From: Escherichia phage vB_EcoP_PHB20
Strand: one strand, 5' to 3'
Sequence record: MN481366.1
DNA length: 38,552 nucleotides
In this document: positions 10,934 through 11,000 of the stretch, piece by piece
Numbering within the stretch: position 1 is the stretch's first letter
Layout: each line of letters opens with the position of its first letter
Notes under the pieces: model-generated
What the model saw: only the letters and a program-made list of their open reading frames with translations
Told to the model about the DNA's origin: nothing
Database searches by the model: none
Made by a program: the position numbers and the translations under genes

Positions 10934-10953
10934 TTGAACTCACTAAAGGGAGA
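10931..10953 (+). promoter_or_regulatory. T7 RNAP promoter phi3.8
   Basis: taattgaactcactaaagggaga; +1 G at 10948; followed by hairpin gggagaccacaacggtttccc (R3.8-like). Confidence 0.75.
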
Positions 10954-11000
10954 CCACAACGGTTTCCCTTTGTTCGCATTGTTGATTAAGGAATAACCAT

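Follow-up and report, generated by a model that had tools for sequence, protein, structure and literature searches.

The gene-free interval ahead of gene 4 in Escherichia phage vB_EcoP_PHB20: a probable unoccupied allele of an HNH endonuclease insertion site

The free-standing homing endonuclease genes of T-even phages (seg, mob) show presence/absence polymorphism and co-conversion of flanking markers. Phage T7 carries a candidate of comparable kind between promoter phi3.8 and gene 4A: gene 3.8, which encodes a 121-residue protein with a Pfam HNH_3 domain (E = 3e-15) and overlaps the 4A start by 26 nt. Homologs of this gene in phiA1122, Tarrare, the fPS phages and Klebsiella Przondovirus occupy the same address, from the gene 4 promoter to gene 4. 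The product, gp3.8, has been treated as a putative HNH homing endonuclease, a catalytically dead form of which blunts GAPS4 defence, and T7 deleted for genes 2.8, 7.7 and 3.8 is viable (bioRxiv 10.1101/2025.09.07.674715); gp3.8 is likewise among the non-essential genes that have been seamlessly removed from T7 (PMC12153263). Citrobacter phage SH5 has a gp3.8-like gene (54% identity) that is absent from its close relatives SH4 and Dev2 (PMC4925675). No gp3.8 cleavage site or homing activity is reported in these three papers.

Here we describe the corresponding interval in Escherichia phage vB_EcoP_PHB20, using the whole 38,552-nt record MN481366.1, which we refer to as the window. The original prediction for this interval was that the promoter had been retained and its cargo gene lost. 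We favor, with considerable confidence, a model in which the interval 10934-11000 comprises the promoter and leader of gene 4, both intact, and in which the HNH insertion site of the window is the unoccupied allele. The gene order of the window is T7-like, with protein identities mostly of 90-100% (tblastn with T7 proteins; the identities of the proteins were settled by Pfam and direct comparison with T7). The record is circularly rotated relative to the T7 map: a gene 19.5 homolog (201-311) and a consensus promoter (~55-69) lie within 1-320, and the window therefore starts in the right-end genome region. Positions 10400-11700 are 100% identical over their full length to Enterobacteria phage vB_EcoP_IME390 (Teseptimavirus IME390, host E. 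coli BL21; megablast), whose RefSeq annotation runs from an amidase to a DNA primase/helicase with no gene between. The features of the locus are as follows.

10478-10933, plus strand: gene 3.5, N-acetylmuramoyl-L-alanine amidase / T7 lysozyme homolog, 151 aa, from the ORF list
10931-10953, plus strand: T7-RNA-polymerase promoter TAATTGAACTCACTAAAGGGAGA, identical to T7 phi3.8, +1 at G10948
10948-10968, plus strand: 5' leader stem-loop, 8 bp with a 5-nt loop, GGGAGACC-ACAAC-GGTTTCCC, which folds
10969-11000, plus strand: remaining part of the gene 4 leader (53 nt in all), including the native ribosome-binding segment TTGATTAAGGAATAACC and AAGGA at 10988-10992
10982-11177, plus strand: replaced block, 196 nt, allelic to T7 11214-11741 (528 nt), from pairwise alignments and a sliding identity profile
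11001-12701, plus strand: gene 4 primase/helicase, 566 aa, ATG at 11001, 53 nt past +1
11001-11189, plus strand: zinc-binding domain (ZBD) of gene 4, Pfam Zn_Ribbon_Prim
11190, plus strand: internal 4B-type start ATG, with GGAGGT just ahead

The promoter is the same as T7 phi3.8 at all 23 aligned positions, which places +1 at G10948, and it matches the 23-bp T7-group consensus TAATACGACTCACTATAGGGAGA (-17 to +6, with G at +1) at 19 of them. With at most one mismatch allowed, the window contains 11 copies of the core pattern ACTCACTAWAGGRAG where 0.01 would be expected, and the same genome encodes the cognate single-subunit RNA polymerase, a gene 1 homolog at 3796-6444 with 98.1% amino acid identity to that of T7. 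From these matches we infer that 10931-10953 functions as a class II T7-type promoter of gene 4, at which transcription would start at G10948 and drive gene 4. A scan of 10000-12000 for sigma-70 promoters and intrinsic terminators returned counts at chance level and none within 10934-11000. The promoter also overlaps the end of gene 3.5, whose product is 97.4% identical in amino acids to T7 gp3.5 (tblastn with T7 proteins): the TAA stop at 10931-10933 forms promoter positions -17 to -15. The stop doubles as the promoter start because 4 nt found in T7 between gene 3.5 and the promoter are absent here (alignment, window 10930-10934). Most close relatives have these 4 nt, their megablast matches spanning 1305 nt against 1301 in the window.

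Downstream of +1 the leader begins as it does in T7, with 33 of the first 34 nt the same and both leaders placed directly after gene 3.5. The stem of the 5' hairpin lengthens on folding to 11 bp (10945-10971) in read-through RNA. The 21-mer GGGAGACCACAACGGTTTCCC that forms the hairpin (10948-10968) recurs exactly at 21558-21578, where no chance match is expected, and this second copy lies 44 nt upstream of the major capsid gene, which identifies it as the equivalent of the phi10 leader. The hairpin is thus a generic 5' element shared with the phi10 leader. The T7 phi3.8 leader differs from the 21-mer by one loop base, and the hairpin corresponds to the stem-loop annotated in the T7.1 record as "possible RNase III site R3.8", "possible" being that record's own word; in the window its sequence is conserved save for this one loop substitution, as a hairpin of 8-11 bp. 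Judged by its T7 counterpart, the stem-loop probably stabilises or processes the RNA. The remainder of the leader holds the ribosome site, with AAGGA eight bases ahead of the gene 4 ATG. These data agree with the original prediction that the phi3.8 promoter and a hairpin are followed after about 50 nt by gene 4, the leader being 53 nt long.

The two phages differ in what follows. In T7, gene 3.8 begins 45 nt later and the gene 4A start lies 385 nt from +1, whereas in the window gene 4 starts after 53 nt. The original prediction is correct that T7 has an HNH-like gene at this position and that the window has none: the ORF list holds no plus-strand ORF of at least 25 aa starting in 10934-11000, and the HNH_3 ORF found in T7, in loci L013, L014 and L023 and in Shigella phage ESh6 has no counterpart between promoter and gene 4 in the window. 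Searching the window with T7 gp3.8 by tblastn (word size 2, E up to 100) gave nothing near the site, the best hit anywhere being noise at E = 0.2, and searches with gene 3.8 DNA by blastn and blastn-short returned only noise and nothing near the site. Unlike T7, phiA1122, Tarrare, the fPS phages and Klebsiella Przondovirus, the window therefore has neither gene 3.8 nor a remnant of it.

The difference between T7 and the window is an allelic block replacement, not the insertion or deletion of one gene. Near-identity with T7 runs through ...TTTGTTCGCATTG (window 10981), where the T7 gene 3.8 cassette begins, and no residual 3.8 sequence is found at the junction when the T7 interval is aligned; it resumes at GGAGGTAAACCAATG (window 11178, 4B-type start). 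The flanks of the block are 93-100% identical to T7. Between them, the 196 nt of the window contain the native ribosome site and 59 codons of a ZBD that we call class A, and nothing else, while the 528 nt of T7 contain a ribosome site and gene 3.8, a new gene 4 ribosome site inside the end of 3.8, and the T7-type ZBD, here called class B. The ZBDs of window and T7 share ~65% identity in DNA and 56% in protein, and the 300 gp4 residues after the ZBD are ~100% identical.

To place this arrangement among relatives, we surveyed phage records with a 150-nt query running from the promoter into gene 4, taking at least 80% coverage as a collinear match. The 187 collinear records include T3, phiYe-F10 and Erwinia, Pantoea and Klebsiella phages; the T7 match is limited to query positions 1-51, up to window 10981. 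What recurs in the 187 records is a unit of promoter, hairpin, TTGATTAAGGAAT ribosome site and gene 4; conservation of TTGATTAAGGAAT extends from T7-like and T3-like phages to lineages whose promoters have other specificities. Phages of the T3 / phiYeO3-12 type are collinear with the window over promoter, hairpin, ribosome site and the start of gene 4 at ~80% identity, have the window-type ZBD and lack an HNH gene; they differ in that gene 3.5 and the promoter stand ~120 nt further apart and in a T3-specific promoter sequence. We also compared 30 IMG/VR loci around gp4 homologs. In those of the set with an empty site the promoter core lies 58-63 nt ahead of the gene 4 ATG. Because these elements recur collinearly and the distance from promoter to gene 4 is constant among relatives, the conserved cargo of the promoter is gene 4. 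The prediction of a retained promoter with missing cargo thus stands as to the presence of the promoter and the absence of 3.8, but not as to the cargo, nor as to a loss by deletion.

The empty allele is the majority state in Teseptimavirus and in every other group sampled, and it is most simply the uninvaded one. An HNH_3 gene lies between promoter and gene 4 in 6 of the 30 loci. In four of these six (T7 itself, phiA1122, L011 and L023) it is a 3.8 of the T7 type; L013 and L014 have different HNH_3 genes, inserted immediately after the hairpin. Other HNH_3 genes are found upstream of the promoter in Shigella phage ESh6 and between genes 3 and 3.5 in Cedecea phage Yanou. The presence of such genes at several nearby points (L013, L014, ESh6, Yanou) marks the region as a hot spot.

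Several details of these neighbours deserve mention. The ZBDs of L013 (1977-2511) and L014 (1974-2511) are 98% identical, yet the two loci have different HNH_3 genes at one point. The L013 copy begins as in L014 but runs into a stop, after which only a 118-aa ORF remains, and is apparently an endonuclease gene in decay. In L039 (Klebsiella phage SH-Kp 152410) the promoter hairpin is followed by a small ORF and then by the 3.8 homolog; the stretch at ~830-900, which lies between hairpin and ORF, looks like one half of a tRNA, the 3' one (...GGTTCGATTCCCGGACTGACCACACCA), but no tRNA is called in it by ARAGORN.

Taken together, these comparisons lead us to propose that 10934-11000 is the expression unit of gene 4, intact and conserved, in which a T7-type promoter of class II is followed by the 5' stem-loop and gene 4's own ribosome site, and that the window has no gene here since it would carry the unoccupied allele of a site repeatedly invaded by free-standing HNH endonuclease genes. 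T7 gene 3.8 would be one such invader, lying downstream of the pre-existing gene 4 promoter and for that reason expressed for free. Along with it would have come a ribosome site of its own for gene 4 and a gene 4 start that encodes a foreign zinc finger. By analogy with the free-standing homing endonucleases of T-even phages, 3.8 may spread by cutting the empty (class A) allele and co-converting its flanks, including the ZBD. The lineage of the window would never have been invaded, rather than having been cured.

Curing by allelic replacement is the alternative that fares best, although we regard it as unlikely. Here an ancestor of the window would have had 3.8 together with the T7-type ZBD, and the whole block would have been exchanged by recombination for that of a phage whose site was empty; the present sequence would look the same as a never-invaded one. 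A block that differs sharply between flanks 93-100% identical to T7 is what such an exchange would leave, but it shows border recombination and not which lineage underwent it. The second point in favor of curing is that filled and empty alleles coexist in at least three lineages with a cassette divergence similar to that of the backbones. The 3.8 cassettes share 71-81% nucleotide and ~78% amino acid identity across genera, a divergence about equal to that of the phage backbones; the filled/empty polymorphism may therefore be old, and polarity in the lineage of the window is a matter of likelihood. However, curing needs an extra step, and it has to be set against the predominance of the empty allele in Teseptimavirus and every other sampled group. 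It also sits poorly with the ZBD, where the discordant partner is T7 and not the window. The class A ZBD of the window is about as related to other loci as is the rest of its gp4 (81% vs 85% to T3-like loci; 77% vs 81% to L022), and the DNA identity profiles of the window to KP32, L016 and L022 are smooth through the ZBD region, whereas the class B ZBD of T7 stands out at 56% against ~100% for the rest of gp4.

We give very little credence to a simple deletion, in which 3.8 was lost from a T7-like ancestor and left an orphaned promoter. T7 does have 3.8 here behind an identical promoter, and laboratory lines of T7 do lose 3.8 by deletion, spontaneously or under selection. Against this, the window has no remnant of 3.8 at the protein or DNA level, its first 59 gene 4 codons belong to a different allele class, and its ribosome site is the native TTGATTAAGGAAT, common to T3-like phages and other lineages, rather than T7's AGGAGGGAATTGC. 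A known deletion mutant, in contrast, retains all T7-specific flanks: in T7_60L, a laboratory mutant of T7, 292 nt are deleted from within 3.8, and there remain the 3.8 start codon, the T7 ribosome site and the class B ZBD, none of which the window has. A candidate for natural loss is also unlike the window. In L032 (2460-2500) only 25 nt separate 3.5 from gene 4, the ZBD is of the third class found in L013 and L014, and an HNH gene is absent. The ribosome site there seems to be a promoter-like but degenerate sequence, TAACAGGGCTCACCAAAGGAGAA; this locus may have lost both promoter and endonuclease.

That an unrecognised small gene or non-coding RNA functionally replaces 3.8 in the interval is scarcely credible: the leader does fold better than shuffled controls (z = -2.2 to -2.5; for the 56-nt leader, -15.7 kcal/mol and z = -2.2), but the gene 4 ATG follows +1 by just 53 nt, no ORF of at least 25 aa starts there, the hairpin is the one of the phi10 leader, and an Rfam search of 10700-11300 with permissive filters and E up to 1 gave no match.

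Genomes that are otherwise close relatives differ in whether this position is filled or empty, and they do so in several lineages. Besides T7 and the window, L023 (filled) and L022 (empty) differ by an insertion at the homologous point, and the same contrast is seen between Klebsiella phages SH-Kp 152410 (filled) and KP32 (empty). In three lineage pairs (T7 and the window, L023 and L022, SH-Kp 152410 and KP32) the 3.8 homolog goes with a class B ZBD and the empty site with class A, and L013 and L014 have a third ZBD class. The linkage is not absolute, since L025, L028 and L033 have class B, T7-type ZBD cores without any HNH gene. One of these, the T3-like L028, has a gp4 helicase part 100% identical to that of L016, and its ZBD core (2501-2687) is T7-like, at 66% to L016; the ribosome site is native, there is no HNH gene, and the mosaic patch is restricted to the zinc finger. 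A recent transfer of the T7 cassette from a Klebsiella phage was considered and rejected, as the identity of the cassettes (71-74% in nucleotides) is not above that of the backbones; either the donor of the T7 cassette is unsampled or else the polymorphism is old.

These associations raise the possibility, which we advance tentatively and would presently rate below even chances, that the 3.8-family HNH gene and the T7-type ZBD form one mobile cassette whose endonuclease cuts class A ZBD DNA, roughly at window 11035-11140. In that case phages like IME390 would serve as natural recipients, losing the class A marker to T7 in co-infection, and much of the allelic diversity of the ZBD in T7-like phages would stem from homing and escape, not from primase function.

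The window also differs from T7 at other endonuclease-type genes. By tblastn with T7 proteins, the window lacks homologs of T7 genes 1.4, 1.8, 3.8, 4.1 and 5.3, and genes 2.8 and 7.7 are not found at their T7 positions and match only an ORF elsewhere. With 2.8, 3.8, 5.3 and 7.7 lacking counterparts in place, all four optional T7 endonuclease-type genes are missing from their T7 sites. The ORF in question (38105-38548, plus strand) encodes 147 aa with HNH_3 and HTH domains directly after gene 19 (terminase large subunit), and part of it shares 45% identity with T7 gp7.7 and 39% with gp2.8. No other HNH gene was found in the genome of the window, and T7 has none where this ORF lies. Gene 3 (endonuclease I, 10023-10478) lies directly downstream of where T7 carries 2.8 and has ~73% DNA and 86% protein identity to T7, against 93-98% for its neighbours 2.5 and 3.5; it is a second diverged block beside a missing endonuclease gene. 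In the tail fibre gene 17 (33273-35280) the match to T7 gp17 is limited to residues 1-290, at 58% identity, and the C-terminal receptor-binding part has no T7 match in the same tblastn comparison, a difference that suggests another receptor specificity.

The layout described here is already known: it is standard for most T7 relatives, stands in public annotation and represents a known kind of polymorphism. The consistent linkage between 3.8 and ZBD allele is the only new lead, and a modest one, and it offers a candidate 100-nt target region for gp3.8. It follows from the comparison that the promoter named "phi3.8" is really that of gene 4, with gene 3.8 an optional passenger. For the engineering of T7 chassis, deletion of 3.8 differs from restoration of the natural empty allele.

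How far does this locus resemble the T-even seg and mob systems? It departs from them in that cleavage, target site and biased inheritance are putative for gp3.8 and in that the diverged flank is present in some phages that lack the endonuclease. What it shares with them is an intergenic HNH gene beside a conserved essential replication gene, filled and empty alleles at one and the same point in several lineages, and a sharply diverged flank limited to the adjoining coding sequence.
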